From IMG/VR virus record IMGVR_UViG_2681813454_000002, positions 1-46,959 of that record: 46,959 nt of DNA. One strand, given 5' to 3'. This DNA comes from a virus (taxonomy: Duplodnaviria; Heunggongvirae; Uroviricota; Caudoviricetes). The notes under the pieces were generated by a model. That model was not told the origin of the DNA. It saw only the letters and a list, made by a program, of their open reading frames with translations, and searched no databases. A program made the translations under genes and the position numbers. Positions 2,619 to 46,595 of this stretch are shown here, piece after piece (positions within the stretch are counted from its first letter, which is position 1; each line of letters begins with the position of its first letter).

Positions 2619-3130
2619 GCCGCGTTTCCTTCTTTCTTATTAACAATCACACCGTCATATATTTCATTAAGGTGCCCTCTCAACTCCATGCGCCTTAATG
2701 CAGATAACATGTAATCGCATTCAACCTGCTTATTCCCAGTAAATGGCTTATCGTCAGGATTACCCCAACAGCAATTACCCCTGGGCCATCCATGTACTTT
2801 CCGTACTCTTCCGTTAACAACGTGAAGTAATCCCCAGCCGGGAGGTAAATCCTCAACTGAAATAATTTCCGGCTCACTAATAAAGAATCGCCAGTCGCCC
2901 ATGCCAAGTGAGGGATTTTTACGGAAACGCTTTTTTCTATCTGCCAACAAGTCAGCACGAGAACACTTCGCCTCTATCAGGCATGATGCTGAATTTCTGA
3001 ATCCCATAGCATCTGGCTGTTCTCCGGTACTGGTTACAGCAACAAAGCGGTCATGAAAGCAAACCTTGAACCCGTTGCGCTTAAGGAACTTGTACGCAAT
3101 CTGACAGAGTTCGTGGTGTGTTAACGCCAT
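2615..3130 (-). CDS. Putative PD-(D/E)XK-family nuclease-like protein (171 aa from the MALTHH start)
   Basis: ATG at 3128-3130 with RBS AAGGAGAG; sequence has a D...EAK arrangement (..PDAMGF..CLIEAKCSRADL..) reminiscent of PD-(D/E)XK nucleases; family assignment is tentative. Confidence 0.5.
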   Translation of the reverse strand: MALTHHELCQIAYKFLKRNGFKVCFHDRFVAVTSTGEQPDAMGFRNSASCLIEAKCSRADLLADRKKRFRKNPSLGMGDWRFFISEPEIISVEDLPPGWGLLHVVNGRVRKVHGWPRGNCCWGNPDDKPFTGNKQVECDYMLSALRRMELRGHLNEIYDGVIVNKKEGNAA

Positions 3131-6089: not shown

Positions 6090-6455
6090 TTATTGCGCTA
6101 ATTCTTTTTCGGCAGCAGCTTTTGTATACTCACATGCAAAACTCAGAATTTCGCTGCCGAGTGTTTTCGTTTCGTGATTACTGGACATATGTAATACCTG
6201 TGTTGCATGCAATAAATGATAAACATTTACCGCAAATGAATCAGGCTCCAGACAAATGCCTTCGTAATTATCTTGCTGTGAGGTTGTTTCTGTCATTGCT
6301 CCTGAAGTGCATGCGAGCCTGTTTTTGACAATTCTCTTTTCTCTAATCACTATATCGGCAACATCTATTGCCTTTACAACCTCCGGGAGAAGTTCCGGGT
6401 TTGTATAATCAAAGTCATCAACATGGAGAACAGTTATGTTTTCGAACTTTTTCAT
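6090..6455 (-). CDS. Hypothetical protein (121 aa), uncharacterised accessory gene
   Basis: RBS GAGGAAG before the ATG at 6453-6455. Confidence 0.55.
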   Translation of the reverse strand: MKKFENITVLHVDDFDYTNPELLPEVVKAIDVADIVIREKRIVKNRLACTSGAMTETTSQQDNYEGICLEPDSFAVNVYHLLHATQVLHMSSNHETKTLGSEILSFACEYTKAAAEKELAQ

Positions 6456-6696
6456 GGCTTCCTCAGCTGACTTATATGTTCTGCTATATAGCGAGTCTCA
6501 GAAGTGTTTTCATATTGAGACTGTTTCCGCAATGATTGATAAAAATGTTCGCATGTACCTTGAAGGGCGAAGCGGCGATTATGTCACTATTGGTATTGGT
6601 TCTTCCGCAGAAGAGCTTCGCGAGATAAGGGGCAAACTTGTTGAGATGCGTCATGGTGTTGCTGCTCCTCACTTTTTGGTTGCTCCGGAGGAGTAA
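6436..6696 (+). CDS. Candidate plus-strand ORF (86 aa) embedded in the leftward operon
   Basis: GGAG 7 nt upstream of the ATG at 6436; overlaps the 5' end of the 121-aa gene and the 3' end of the HTH gene; may be spurious. Confidence 0.2.
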   Translation: MFSNFFMASSADLYVLLYSESQKCFHIETVSAMIDKNVRMYLEGRSGDYVTIGIGSSAEELREIRGKLVEMRHGVAAPHFLVAPEE

Positions 6697-7087
6697 CCTC
6701 ACCAGTTAACAGCCACATCGGATCGCAGCCAAGAATATTTGCCAGTGGGATAAGCATACTGATAGTTGGTTCATACTCTCCGCTCTCCCACTGGATGATA
6801 ATTTCTTCATCGAGATCGAGCAGCCTGGCGAGTTCGGCGGTTGTTAAGCCGCAGGCTTCGCGTTGGGTGCGAAGACGGTTGTTGATTGCAGAATTTTTGT
6901 TCTGTAAAAGCATTGCTGACGATAGCTTTCTGGATATGCTATTTGTCATATCCCATGCCAGTCCTGCGCATGACTCTATATCGCTAGAGAGCGTAGCATC
7001 AGGTGTTGCTTTTGCTATTAGTGTAATGAGGCTGCCGAGGTTTTTCAGTTCTTCGAGACAGTCAAGAGTTGTAGCTTTATTGATCAT
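6587..7087 (-). CDS. HTH (XRE-family) DNA-binding protein (166 aa), first gene of the leftward early operon
   Basis: Central motif GLTTAELARLLDLDEEIIIQWESGEYEPTISMLIPLANILGCDPMWLLTGE is a Cro/C1-type HTH; RBS TGAGGT before the ATG at 7085-7087; preceded by operator-like repeats. Confidence 0.6.
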   Translation of the reverse strand: MINKATTLDCLEELKNLGSLITLIAKATPDATLSSDIESCAGLAWDMTNSISRKLSSAMLLQNKNSAINNRLRTQREACGLTTAELARLLDLDEEIIIQWESGEYEPTISMLIPLANILGCDPMWLLTGEVTPPEQPKSEEQQHHDASQQVCPLSREALLRKNQYQ

Positions 7088-7116
7088 GAGATGATACCTC
7101 AGTTACGAACTTTGTT

Positions 7117-7170
7117 TTATGGTAACTAAGGTATCAAGGTGTGGCAAGTGATTTTTGATACTTTGGTTTC
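7117..7170. promoter_or_regulatory. OL-like operator/promoter region (TTGATAC repeats)
   Basis: Two TTGATAC(C/T)-type motifs in opposite orientation (7130-7137 minus strand, 7155-7166 plus strand) between the cI stop and the first leftward gene. Confidence 0.4.
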
Positions 7171-7190
7171 TTTTTGTGTTTTGTGTCTGG

Positions 7191-7847
7191 TCAGAAAATA
7201 TCCCACCTGGCATCAACCACAACACCTACTATTTCGCAATCATTGTCCATTTCTATGATTGGATATTGTGGATTAAGGGGCTTTAGAAACGCCTTTCCCA
7301 TGTCAGAAATATATTTTTTGAATGTTGCTTCATTGGTCGATTTTTTTCTGGCGATGACGTAACACCCTGAAAAAACTTCTTTATCTGGGTTGACAAGGAT
7401 CGACATTCCTTCAGGAAATGTTATTCCTACGGGCGAAGTCATTGAGTCTCCGTGCACTTCCAGCCAGAACCCCCTCTCACCAGCGTATTTTACAGAATGC
7501 CTCCAATTATCCTGATCATACATGTTGTAGTCATCACCAGAAGTTGCGAATAATCCTGCCTGAACCCAGTTAATTACAGGGTAAGAGTGTGCTGTGTCTC
7601 TCTGTGGGCAGCTCTTAACATTATTTTCCCAATGCTTATCTTTTTCATCTCCGTTCTGAAGCCACTGCGGTGAACACCGCAGTGCAGCTGCAACTTTAAA
7701 AAGGGTGTCACCGTTGAAACTTTTTGTAAGGCCTTGCTCGGCTTTACTGATTGCAACTCTGGTGATCCCAGCTTTTTTAGCCAACGCATCTTGTGTTAAC
7801 CCAGCTTTTTGCCGTGCGTTGATGAGACGTTCACCTAAAGACTTCAT
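7191..7847 (-). CDS. cI: CI-like prophage repressor (HTH plus S24 LexA-like autocleavage domain, 218 aa)
   Basis: N-terminal HTH (LTQDALAKKAGITRVAISKAEQG) and C-terminal S24-peptidase-like domain; ATG at 7845-7847 with RBS GAGGAG; divergent from the rightward genes. Confidence 0.85.
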   Translation of the reverse strand: MKSLGERLINARQKAGLTQDALAKKAGITRVAISKAEQGLTKSFNGDTLFKVAAALRCSPQWLQNGDEKDKHWENNVKSCPQRDTAHSYPVINWVQAGLFATSGDDYNMYDQDNWRHSVKYAGERGFWLEVHGDSMTSPVGITFPEGMSILVNPDKEVFSGCYVIARKKSTNEATFKKYISDMGKAFLKPLNPQYPIIEMDNDCEIVGVVVDARWDIF

Positions 7848-7861
7848 TTTTCTTCTCCTCT

Positions 7862-7955
7862 CATGGCTGTTGATACTAAAGTAACAGAATTTCTTGATAC
7901 TTTGGATTCCCGTGGTTAACATCGTTGGATAACAAAGTATCTGGTGTGAGACTAA
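7862..7955. promoter_or_regulatory. OR-like operator/promoter region (PRM/PR) with repeated TTGATAC half-sites
   Basis: TTGATACTAAAGTA at 7870, TTGATACTTTGG at 7894 and inverted GATAACAAAGTATC at 7928-7941, in the divergent intergenic region between cI and the rightward genes. Confidence 0.5.
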
Positions 7956-7958
7956 AGA

Positions 7959-8186
7959 ATGACCCTTTATGAAATATTAAAAATTCAATTTAAAACCAAT
8001 GCCGCTATTGGTCGCAGGTTCCCAAAGAAAGGAAGGCCTCGTGGCAGTCAAGGTGTTGGAAAGTGGAAAACGCGAGGTGTTCCGGAGGATGTTGCCATTC
8101 TTTGTCATCTGGATCCGAGCATTCCATATACACACCCAAGTCTAGCGAATACAGAAGATGACAAGCCCACAGGAGACCAACAATGA
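7959..8186 (+). CDS. Hypothetical ORF in the Cro position (75 aa), doubtful
   Basis: Only ORF between OR and the Rha gene; basic and Pro/Gly-rich, no HTH recognisable; weak RBS. Confidence 0.2.
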   Translation: MTLYEILKIQFKTNAAIGRRFPKKGRPRGSQGVGKWKTRGVPEDVAILCHLDPSIPYTHPSLANTEDDKPTGDQQ

Positions 8187-8890
8187 ACACCGCAATTTTT
8201 AACGGCAAAGCATCCATGACCAGCGTTGAGATCGCAGAGCTGGTGGGTAAACGTCATGACAATGTGAAACGCACTATTGAAACATTAGCCAAAGGTGGCG
8301 TTGTCCGGTCTCCTCAAATTGAGGTTTCCGAAAGAATCAATAACTTAGGTTTTAAAGTTCAATATGAGCATTACCTGTTTGAAGGAGAACAAGGTAAGCG
8401 CGACAGCATCATTGTCGTCGCACAGCTCTGTCCTGAATTCACTGCTCGCCTGGTAGATCGCTGGCGCGAACTGGAAGAACAGATCCGTAAGCCAATGAGC
8501 GAAATCGAAATGGTTGCCGCGATGGCTCTTGAAGCCGTTCGCCAACAGAAACGGATCACTCAGGTGGAAGAAAAAGTCAGCCACGTTGCTGAAACAGTCG
8601 AGCAAATTAAAAAGGGCACTATTCGTGAGGGCTATGCCGGATATCGCCAACTGAAAGCAAAAACCGGTTTGTCAGATGATAAATGCCGCAATCTGGTGAA
8701 CGCCTATCAGATTCCTACAGACACCCATGAGTTCATGACGCCGGACGGATTGTTGTCACGTCGCGCAATTGTTGCTGTGGAACCGTTTATGGCTGCTTTT
8801 TATCGGGTTATGGAGGAAGCAGAACCGCGAGGGACTCGCTGGTATCACCCGAAAATGGGGTTATTTCAGGTTATTGGTTGGCAGCGGTGA
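8183..8890 (+). CDS. Rha-family phage regulatory protein / antirepressor-like (235 aa)
   Basis: N-terminus ..MTSVEIAELVGKRHDNVKRTIETL.. is typical of the Rha family; RBS GGAGA before the ATG. Confidence 0.75.
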   Translation: MNTAIFNGKASMTSVEIAELVGKRHDNVKRTIETLAKGGVVRSPQIEVSERINNLGFKVQYEHYLFEGEQGKRDSIIVVAQLCPEFTARLVDRWRELEEQIRKPMSEIEMVAAMALEAVRQQKRITQVEEKVSHVAETVEQIKKGTIREGYAGYRQLKAKTGLSDDKCRNLVNAYQIPTDTHEFMTPDGLLSRRAIVAVEPFMAAFYRVMEEAEPRGTRWYHPKMGLFQVIGWQR

Positions 8891-8913: not shown

Positions 8914-9020
8914 TCACTCAACATCAATAACGGGGAGCTGTTTCGCATAAAACGGCTCCGAAACATCCAAGAACAGTTCTAAAGATATCAGCAGCTATAT
9001 GATCATTTCAAGACCAAATA

Positions 9021-9049
9021 TTGATTCTGCAATTTCGGGACGTTACACT
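9021..9049 (+). promoter_or_regulatory. Candidate sigma70 promoter (TTGATT-17 bp-TACACT)
   Basis: -35 at 9021-9026 and -10 at 9044-9049 with 17-bp spacing, in a noncoding region of about 400 bp. Confidence 0.3.
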
Positions 9050-9112
9050 GTCTCTGCACCTTATAAAGCGGGTGCCGGGGGTCGCAGCCCGGAATTGTCA
9101 ACGGCGATATAT

Positions 9113-9133
9113 GACGCGCCAGCGTCTTTTTTA
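9113..9133 (+). terminator. Intrinsic terminator (GACGC-GCCA-GCGTC plus T6)
   Basis: Perfect 5-bp GC-rich stem followed by TTTTTT, about 65 nt downstream of the candidate promoter. Confidence 0.45.
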
Positions 9134-9298
9134 TCGTCCGCGCTCACGCACGCCAGAATTATGGTGGGCTGGGCAGGGGAGCCGAAAGGCTCGCCGGTTT
9201 CCGTTGACGCCGGTACTGCGAACCCTGTTCAGTCTGCCACCAGTGAGTTTCGCAGCTCCGGTGGTGGAAGTTTTCCACAGTCAACGGAGGCTGCCATC

Positions 9299-9850
9299 AT
9301 GGCTACGATCCCAACCCTCACTCAACCTGAAATTGCCATCGTTGATGGTCAGGCTGTTACTTCATCCCTGGCTGTTGCCAACTTCTTCTCCAAGCGTCAT
9401 GACGATGTACTGAAAAAGATCCGCACGCTTGAATGCTCCGCATCATTCACTGCCCGCAATTTTTCGGTGAGTGATTACACCGATTGCACAGGCCGCAAAC
9501 TACCTTGCTATCAAATCACCCGTGATGGCTTCGCGTTCCTTGCTATGGGCTTTACTGGCAAACGTGCAGCCCGGTTCAAAGAGGCATACATCAACGCCTT
9601 TAACCTGATGGAGAAGAGTTTATCAGGTGCCGATGCGTCTGATATGTCAGCTGTCGCACGAAACGCCAGAGGCGTATACCTGCATTTGCGTGAAATCCAT
9701 CAAATCTGGACAAGCCAGCTTTATCCAATGCTTAAGGCCGTTGAATCTCCGCTGGCTAGCAAACTGTACGACCGTGTTGGTGATGCTGTTTTTGGCGCTG
9801 CACTTGTTGATTCCAGGCTGAATGGTTCTGACAAGGAGGTTCGCCCATGA
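9299..9850 (+). CDS. Second Rha-family protein (183 aa from the MATIPTL start)
   Basis: ATG at 9299 after ACGGAGG; ..AVANFFSKRHDDVLKKIRTL.. Rha-like N-terminal domain; the upstream in-frame extension from 8999 is low-complexity and probably untranslated. Confidence 0.7.
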   Translation: MATIPTLTQPEIAIVDGQAVTSSLAVANFFSKRHDDVLKKIRTLECSASFTARNFSVSDYTDCTGRKLPCYQITRDGFAFLAMGFTGKRAARFKEAYINAFNLMEKSLSGADASDMSAVARNARGVYLHLREIHQIWTSQLYPMLKAVESPLASKLYDRVGDAVFGAALVDSRLNGSDKEVRP

Positions 9851-46011: not shown

Positions 46012-46595
46012 TGGCATTCAGAATGAGTGAACAAGCACGGACCATAAAAATTTATAATCTGCTGGCCGGAACTAATGAATTTATTGGTGAAGGTGACGCA
46101 TATATTCCGCCTCATACAGGTCTGCCAGCAAACAGTACCGATATTGCACCACCAGATATTCCTGCTGGCTTTGTGGCTGTTTTCAACAGTGATGAGGCAT
46201 CGTGGCATCTCGTTGAAGACCATCGGGGTAAAACGGTTTATGACGTAGCGTCAGGGGACGAGTTATTTATTTCTGAACTCGGTCCGTTACCGGAAAATGT
46301 TACCTGGTTATCGCCGGAAGGGGAGTTTCAGAAGTGGAACGGCACAGCCTGGGTGAAGGATACGGAAGCAGAAAAACTGTTCCGGATCCGGGAGGCGGAA
46401 GAAACAAAAAACAACCTGATGCAGGTAGCCAGTGAGCATATTGCGCCGCTTCAGGATGCTGCAGATCTGGAAATTGCAACGGAGGAAGAAACCTCATTGC
46501 TGGAAGCCTGGAAAAAGTATCGGGTGTTGCTGAACCGTGTTGATACATCAACTGCACCTGATATTGAGTGGCCTACGAACCCTGTCAGGGAGTAA
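46011..46595 (+). CDS. tfa: Tail fiber assembly protein Tfa
   Basis: 194 aa, lambda Tfa-like ([24 protein letters not shown]..); TAATG overlap with stf. Confidence 0.9.

Follow-up and report, generated by a model that had tools for sequence, protein, structure and literature searches.

A predicted Cro of the P22 branch with an insertion in its helix-turn-helix turn in the immunity region of a phiP27-type lambdoid prophage

Which gene, if any, serves as the Cro of a prophage whose CI repressor is plain to see but whose immunity region seemed to hold no recognisable Cro? This question is raised by a locus near the left end of the window, by which we mean the whole stretch of 46,959 nucleotides analysed here. 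A preliminary description had noted a LexA-like CI with operator-like repeats on both sides and, rightward of it, a single small ORF of 75 codons. We find that the locus belongs to a lambdoid prophage of the phiP27 type and is its immunity region. With a probability that we put at roughly 0.8, it works as a CI/Cro bistable switch of the classical lambdoid kind, of phiP27 immunity type, with the 75-aa ORF as the Cro. The predicted Cro went unrecognised because five residues are inserted in the turn of its helix-turn-helix (HTH). The genes of the region are as follows.

6587 to 7087, minus strand: first gene of the leftward (PL) operon, an XRE-type HTH protein of 166 aa (Pfam HTH_3, E 3.7e-11)
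7191 to 7847, minus strand: cI, a repressor of 218 aa with HTH_3 and Peptidase_S24 domains
7959 to 8186, plus strand: predicted cro analogue of 75 aa, the counterpart of phiP27 L12 ("cro12"), in phrog_4749
8183 to 8890, plus strand: Rha-family gene (Pfam Phage_pRha, E 5e-10; phrog_63, "anti-repressor Ant")

Over window bases 6400-8300 the Stx2e phage phiP27 is 96% identical, and a group of Stx1a/Stx2a converting phages is 85-86% identical over the same bases. Of 5,426 complete E. coli genomes, 196 carry the 1.1 kb of the immunity region, mostly at an identity of at least 99%, with one copy per genome and a chromosomal location every time. The counterparts of the three central genes in phiP27 are L10, L11 and L12, of which L11 and L12 correspond to CI and to the 75-aa ORF. 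The two phages share the same immunity type, their operators are identical and L12 is 91% identical to the 75-aa protein across residues 1-67. They differ in the C-terminal tail of Cro and in everything rightward of cro, in an additional leftward ORF (L13) that phiP27 carries ahead of its Rha gene, and in the size of L10, which has 138 aa where the window counterpart has 166. Beyond the Stx1a, Stx2a and Stx2e phages, carriers of the 75-aa family include prophages of Klebsiella, Salmonella, Yersinia, Providencia and Photorhabdus, and loci encoding relatives of the 75-aa ORF were taken from Klebsiella, Photorhabdus, Providencia and Salmonella for comparison.

By its domains and residues, CI is a lambda-type repressor made of an HTH and a LexA-like S24 autopeptidase. 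Pfam HTH_3 covers residues 10-63 (E 1.7e-14) with the recognition helix TRVAISKAEQG, and Peptidase_S24 follows with an E-value of 3e-22. The C-terminal domain resembles that of lambda CI (PDB 3bdn, full-length lambda repressor, E 9e-34; 2ho0, E 4e-31), and the N-terminal domain matches 434 Cro, P22 c2 and the 434 repressor (E 1e-8 to 2e-4). The cleavage site Ala97-Gly98 and the Ser135/Lys177 dyad are invariant in six orthologues. The LexA-like assignment made in the preliminary description is thus well founded, and its coordinates for cI are correct; the gene is preceded by a good Shine-Dalgarno sequence, GAGAGGAG. A 243-aa extension of cI, to 7922, is not used. Given these features it is reasonable to expect that CI is SOS-inducible through RecA-stimulated self-cleavage and that it binds cooperatively in the manner of lambda CI.

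The 75-aa ORF has the composition that was first ascribed to it, being basic and rich in proline and glycine (pI 9.5, seven Pro and seven Gly), and its match to a Shine-Dalgarno sequence is indeed poor (tgagactaaagaATG). Nei-Gojobori analysis of six orthologues gives a dN/dS of 0.04-0.12 in its own frame and at least 0.8 in the two other frames, and its stop codon overlaps the ATG of the Rha-family gene (ATGA). This in-frame purifying selection, together with the overlap, indicates that the 75-aa ORF is a real gene, and the overlap further makes the Rha-family gene the second gene of the PR operon. The position of the gene is constant as well. In the window the ORF opens the rightward early operon, divergent from cI across the multi-operator region. 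Its family members are likewise the first rightward gene in seven Klebsiella/Photorhabdus, four Providencia/Salmonella and three Vibrionaceae loci, at about 105-125 bp from a divergent HTH+S24 gene, and the flanking modules vary among these 14 loci. In the 11 enterobacterial loci of this set the distance is about 105-115 bp.

Direct searches assign the protein to no named family. It matches phrog_4749, an unnamed family in PHROGs, over its full length. In Pfam it has no match to PF14549 or PF15943 even at E-values up to 1, and searches of NCBIfam and of PDB sequences return nothing significant. A match to a Nup358 Ran-binding repeat (E 0.75) is spurious. A word-indexed homologue search finds close hypothetical proteins only (above 60% identity), and GenBank, RefSeq, PGAP and all 11 of 11 phage records label the protein hypothetical (WP_000177358 and relatives). 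A Cro assignment by position is already in print: Smith et al. 2012 (PMC3430580) list "P27, Cro12", and their cro12 primers encode MTLYEI and GKQSEV, which are the two ends of phiP27 L12.

Profile comparison through intermediate relatives links the protein to a known Cro. We searched a profile of 36 members of the 75-aa family against 1.84 billion representative proteins and recovered 16 proteins, including Vibrionaceae relatives of 76-99 aa, one of which, from Grimontia, is named a Cro/CI family regulator by NCBI. The Vibrionaceae relatives align from residue 2 to about residue 62, minus five residues between helix 2 and helix 3, and they too are encoded divergently from an HTH+S24 gene. Comparison of the 75-aa family with these insertion-less relatives by hhalign gives a probability of 99.7% (E 6e-26), with one 5-residue gap that falls in the HTH turn. 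The insertion-less relatives have an ordinary HTH (…IARTFGVTRPAVSKWK…) and match the Pfam family P22_Cro, and with 31.2 bits one of them, P0052, exceeds the gathering threshold of 30.2. The best PDB match of their profile is P22 Cro (1rzs; hmmsearch E 3.6e-5), and hhalign aligns the same profile with P22 Cro at a probability of 97% (E 1e-10) over 53 of 61 residues. The direct hhalign comparison of the 75-aa protein with P22 Cro is weak (probability 2.7%, E 0.017), and its register is the same. Based on this chain of profiles, we propose that the 75-aa protein is, as far as computation goes, a Cro homologue of the P22-Cro branch, and we expect it to have repressor activity. The earlier statement that there is no recognisable Cro therefore does not survive: the 75-aa ORF is joined to P22 Cro by transitive profiles, its relatives stand in the cro position in every case examined, and it is, to the extent that computation can tell, a Cro-fold protein.

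The insertion is what sets this predicted Cro apart. P22 Cro (PDB 1rzs; PF14549), of the all-alpha Cro branch, lacks the five extra turn residues (KKGRP or an equivalent); it also ends in -AA, a terminus that the 75-aa protein does not have, and its operator sequence differs from that of the window. The turn region of the 75-aa protein reads FP-KKGRP-RGS, so that a canonical HTH with a tight turn of three to four residues is not formed; the five-residue, mostly basic insertion displaces that turn together with its usual Gly position. The insertion breaks the 20-residue HTH signature, and this is why the Pfam model misses the protein. Within the turn region P22, G25 and R28 are invariant in the family. 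An AT-hook (GRP) was considered as the loop motif and set aside, since it is present in the window protein and is not kept across the family. The predicted structure has a Cro-like three-dimensional fold with helix 2 at 14-20, the recognition helix at 30-39 and, between the two, a basic loop at 21-29 whose length of eight to nine residues contrasts with the usual tight turn. A Foldseek search of this model against PDB and BFVD gives no significant match, and the top names below significance are a Cro hybrid (E 0.75) and a model named YdaS (E 0.39). The C-terminal tail is acidic and variable.

An insertion placed exactly in the HTH turn means that canonical docking on DNA cannot be assumed, and it could be read as a sign that the 75-aa protein derives from Cro and is no longer an operator-binding repressor. 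With its HTH disabled by the expanded turn, it would then work through protein contacts, for example as a small CI-binding antirepressor like MOR of TP901-1, a protein of HTH fold whose gene takes the place of cro, or by modulating the Rha/Ant proteins encoded downstream. Such a role would also suit an operon in which antirepressor-type genes and a C4-type antisense RNA follow. We nevertheless consider it unlikely. The protein has a strongly basic core (pI 10.2), and its loop contains four Lys/Arg. The best-conserved stretch is the putative recognition helix, SQGVGKWK-RG, in which V33, G34, K35 and W36 are invariant in all 36 sequences and which is aligned with its P22 Cro counterpart. The loop is modelled as an ordered hairpin (pLDDT about 95) between two correctly placed helices, and structural similarity to true Cro proteins is higher. 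These observations argue against a loss of operator binding.

A harsher reading, in which there is no Cro at all, would make the 75-aa ORF an unrelated basic protein or a non-gene and leave the decision for lysis to the Rha proteins. It draws on the failure of direct Pfam, NCBIfam and PDB sequence matches, on the weak Shine-Dalgarno sequence and on the uniform label of hypothetical protein in PGAP and the phage records. However, purifying selection acts in the 75-aa frame only, and the ORF is always found beside cI, whatever the genus, whereas the Rha genes are present in some loci and absent from others. Together with the transitive homology to P22 Cro and the Cro-like predicted fold, this makes the reading very improbable, and a P22-branch Cro remains our assignment for the 75-aa ORF.

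A repeat search and direct reading show that the repeat unit is a 14-bp imperfect dyad, GATAC-N4-GTATC, and not TTGATAC, which is one dyad arm plus flank. Called at no more than two mismatches to GATAC-N4-GTATC, there are six such dyads in the two intergenic stretches beside cI, three to the left of the gene and three to its right. They are listed here, unstranded, with the two promoters predicted by a consensus scan.

7093 to 7106: predicted OL site nearest the leftward gene, GATACCTCAGTTAC, two mismatches
7122 to 7135: predicted middle OL site, GTAACTAAGGTATC, lying in the PL spacer and -10
7119 to 7147, minus strand: PL-like promoter, TTGCCA, 17 bp, TACCAT
7157 to 7170: predicted distal OL site, GATACTTTGGTTTC, one mismatch, conserved
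7872 to 7885: predicted OR3-equivalent, nearest cI, GATACTAAAGTAAC, one mismatch, same register in five genera
7896 to 7909: predicted OR2-equivalent, GATACTTTGGATTC
7894 to 7922, plus strand: PR-like promoter, TTGATA, 17 bp, TAACAT
7928 to 7941: predicted OR1-equivalent, nearest cro, GATAACAAAGTATC, one mismatch

The two stretches that hold the six dyads add up to 214 bp, for which the rate in the remaining 46.7 kb of the window predicts 0.087 sites (Poisson P about 6e-10). The preliminary description had counted at least five copies of TTGATAC in two clusters, 7130-7166 and 7870-7941. The repeats are real and do cluster on both sides of cI, and TTGATACY occurs eight times in the whole window against 2.0 expected from shuffles. 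The exact copies of TTGATAC in the region number four, at 7131-7137 (minus strand), 7155-7161, 7870-7876 and 7894-7900 (all plus strand). The fifth copy of the earlier count, at 7934-7941, reads CAGATACT on the minus strand; it keeps the GATACT core alone and forms the right arm of the dyad at 7928. There is also a sixth related copy, TGATACC at 7092-7098, which like the 7093 site falls outside the clusters as first drawn.

Conservation extends to individual sites and to their spacing. On the left, the 7093 site overlaps the Shine-Dalgarno sequence of the 166-aa gene, roughly between +6 and +19 on the inferred PL transcript, and is identical in phiP27 and the Stx2a phage. Photorhabdus likewise has a third OL site, and Klebsiella and Salmonella have only two or one at the same cut-off. 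The middle site (7122) is kept in all five GATAC-type loci, and the distal site (7157) lies directly upstream of the PL -35. On the right, TTGATACTTTGG at OR2 is invariant in a five-locus alignment, and the OR1 counterpart in the Stx2a phage is a perfect palindrome, GATACTTAAGTATC. In E. coli, Klebsiella, Salmonella, Photorhabdus and the Stx2a phage alike, the OR sites start 24 and 32 bp apart. When 27 sites of five loci are combined, the half-site matrix reads T-T-G-A-W-A-C-T-W; in it G1 and C5 hardly vary, and A2 and A4 are strong. Most sites combine one strong arm (TTGATACT) with one weaker arm (GWWAC) around four central bases that are A/T-rich and variable; the operator consensus is TT-GATAC-TWWA-GTATC-AA.

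Providencia offers a natural variant of both partners. Its dyad arms are GAAAC or GTTAC, and its CI recognition helix is SRVTISKIELG, as against TRVAISKAEQG in all GATAC-type loci. That helix and operator have both changed is the co-variation expected of a repressor and its operator, seen here as a single event. We therefore infer that the six dyads are OL-like and OR-like operators of a CI with its own specificity, and to this extent our prediction agrees with the first description of the locus. The idea that the repeats are instead -35-like hexamers or chance A/T-rich repeats, or that they are bound by the 166-aa XRE protein and not by CI, can take from the data that TTGATA at 7894 doubles as the PR -35, but it is scarcely credible given that every copy is an arm of a 14-bp dyad whose second arm is conserved too, that the cluster is so improbable by chance, that the Providencia operators co-vary with the CI recognition helix, and that site position and spacing are kept in Klebsiella, Salmonella and Photorhabdus loci without the XRE gene.

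The PR-like promoter has its inferred start near 7929, at the edge of OR1. The left flank of OR2 and its first four bases form the PR -35 hexamer TTGATA, and the hexamer positions thus place OR2 over the PR -35 and OR1 at about +1 to +12. The PR -35 is invariant in the five-locus alignment, and in each of these loci it is followed, after 17 bp, by a -10 of the form TANNAT or TAGATT. For PL the geometry is readable in Klebsiella, Photorhabdus and Salmonella as TTGNNA, a 17-bp spacer that holds an operator, and TACNWT. For PRM, the minus strand of 7860-7958 was scanned and read by eye, and no convincing hexamer pair was found there; the best candidate for a -10 is TAGTAT inside OR3, whose -35 is poor and overlaps OR2.

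Based on these elements we propose the following working model. In the lysogen, CI dimers on the OR sites (7872, 7896 and 7928), with OR1 and OR2 occupied, would block PR, and CI on the OL sites (7093, 7122 and 7157) would hold PL shut, while a weak PRM-like promoter, within OR3 or close to it, would drive leftward transcription of cI. On SOS induction, RecA-stimulated cleavage at Ala97-Gly98, through the Ser135/Lys177 dyad, would remove CI. The freed PR would then express the 75-aa ORF, followed by the Rha/antirepressor-type genes and by the replication genes. The predicted Cro would bind the same dyads, turning off cI transcription first and later damping PR and PL, and its basic loop may, as a speculation, add contacts to the backbone, the flank or the minor groove. 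Site occupancy, affinity order, cooperativity, the position of PRM and the role of the loop are the parts of this model that we infer.

The loop invites a more specific proposal, which we put forward only tentatively. In the insertion clade, which is confined to Enterobacterales prophages, the hairpin FP-K/R-K/R-G-x-x-R-S would help to recognise the operator. Two features beside the GATAC half-site might be within its reach, the conserved TT flank and the A/T-rich minor groove, and a contact with either may give this Cro a recognition mode unlike that of CI and of other Cro proteins. In a more radical version, the hairpin may have turned Cro into a CI-binding antirepressor.

Comparison with well-studied switches shows where the locus is conventional and where it is not. 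As in lambda, cI and cro are divergent, there are three operators on each side of cI, and PR and PL are overlapped by operators; CI shares with lambda CI a homologous C-terminal domain, the Ala-Gly site and the Ser/Lys dyad. Unlike in lambda, the operators are 14 bp and not 17 bp, OL lies directly downstream of cI, about 740 bp from OR and with no rexAB, and the OR sites are spaced at 24 and 32 bp. The cI start has a normal Shine-Dalgarno sequence, whereas that of lambda is leaderless. None of lambda N, cII and cIII is recognised in the window by Pfam, and a further difference is that Rha/Ant-type genes and a C4-type RNA lie in the PR operon. The operator of phage 434 is also a 14-bp dyad, with four central base pairs that are A/T-rich, variable and uncontacted. 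The geometry of the window operator resembles that of 434, in agreement with a CI N-terminal domain of the 434/P22-like kind. The half-site differs, being ACAA in 434 and GATAC here, and the 434 Cro is of the repressor-like five-helix type, to which the predicted Cro of the window does not belong. We conclude that the switch belongs to a known kind, within which it is distinguished by a new operator specificity and by a predicted Cro that is atypical; it is not a new kind of switch.

These assignments bear on several groups of sequences. The hypothetical protein WP_000177358 and its relatives become an assignable Cro, and the Cro family, a model for fold evolution, gains a member whose HTH turn is expanded. 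For the phiP27 immunity type, the operator (GATAC-N4-GTATC) and the promoter layout are now defined, which helps in predicting superinfection immunity groups and the induction of Stx phages.

Lastly, we looked at the first gene of the leftward operon. An absence of N, cIII and a recognisable cII has been described for P27 (Smith et al. 2012, PMC3430580), and the preliminary description had called this gene an XRE-type HTH protein and not an N-like antiterminator. On both counts we agree: the 166-aa protein is acidic (pI 4.7), with an N-terminal domain of about 70 aa, HTH_3 at residues 72-126 and a short tail, which is not the small arginine-rich RNA-binding protein of the lambda N type. Since the cassettes of Klebsiella, Salmonella and Photorhabdus lack this gene, it is not part of the core switch. 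The protein matches phrog_4739 over its full length and also phrog_4836, a "CII-like regulator", and a DicA-like match appears below cutoff only. Related proteins are very abundant in E. coli prophages; most have 215-230 aa, with an N-terminal domain of about 70 aa and two HTH_3 domains. The copy in the window is shortened, with a single HTH and a replaced tail, and L10 of phiP27 is shorter still.

The rightward PR operon, which begins with cro, carries two RNA genes in addition to its protein-coding genes. Both were identified with Rfam at scores above the gathering scores of their families:

9056-9132, + strand: isrK Hfq-binding RNA (58.7 bits versus a gathering score of 50)
9157-9244, + strand: C4 antisense RNA (81.4 bits versus a gathering score of 45)

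Together these RNAs look like a P1 immI-type module, one in which C4 RNA controls an antirepressor, lying within the PR operon. Both matches fall in the 5' third of a single ORF (8999-9850), which PGAP names a "Rha family phage regulatory protein" and which in Pfam consists of two domains, Phage_ASH and Phage_pRha. The annotated start of this ORF and its "Ash" match probably span the RNA genes rather than protein.

Upstream of this module, the window (8140-8186) and the phiP27 locus (L001, 5100-5165) diverge abruptly within the last 10-15 codons of cro, and we therefore place a mosaic junction at the cro 3' end. After the divergence point, phiP27 has an additional leftward ORF, L13 (672 bp), ahead of its Rha gene. 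On the other side of the immunity region, the 166-aa XRE protein (6587-7087, - strand) is a one-HTH, tail-replaced form of a 215-230-aa two-HTH protein (for example, P0150); E. coli prophages carry this longer protein on over 1,000 contigs.

A sister immunity type is present in Providencia (L010 and L011, at 2890-3000 and 2114-2232). The operator arms there are GAAAC or GTTAC, replacing GATAC, and the recognition helix of CI is altered (SRVTISKIELG). The Cro of these loci differs at residues 19-21, 23, 38, and 51, and its recognition helix, SQGVGKWK, is the same.

Among the Cro relatives that lack the five-residue insertion, most of the Vibrionaceae proteins (P0047-P0056) end in -RAA, -EAA, or -QAA. 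P22 Cro has the same Ala-Ala ending (...YRQAA), whereas the insertion-bearing enterobacterial clade has variable acidic tails in place of it. The Ala-Ala conserved in most of these insertion-less relatives could be a protease recognition tag.

In the window, phiP27, and Stx phages, OL abuts cI and there is no hairpin between them. Cassettes from Klebsiella, Photorhabdus, Providencia, and Salmonella have a G+C-rich hairpin flanked by A/T runs between the cI stop codon and OL, which looks like a bidirectional intrinsic terminator:

L003, 3155-3180: cI-OL hairpin
L007, 3150-3170: cI-OL hairpin
L010, 2180-2215: cI-OL hairpin
L012, about 2195-2225: cI-OL hairpin

At the other end of cI, the mechanical ORF reaches 25 codons further upstream (7848-7922, - strand) to an ATG at 7922 within OR. 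We rejected this start, as homologs and a strong Shine-Dalgarno sequence place the real one at 7847.

The window contains further RNA genes and RNA family matches:

18020-19022: three tRNA genes (Met-CAT, Arg-TCG, Arg-TCT), then STnc100 (sRNA family), present twice
46354-46552: match to the IS009 RNA family, close to the window's right-hand end
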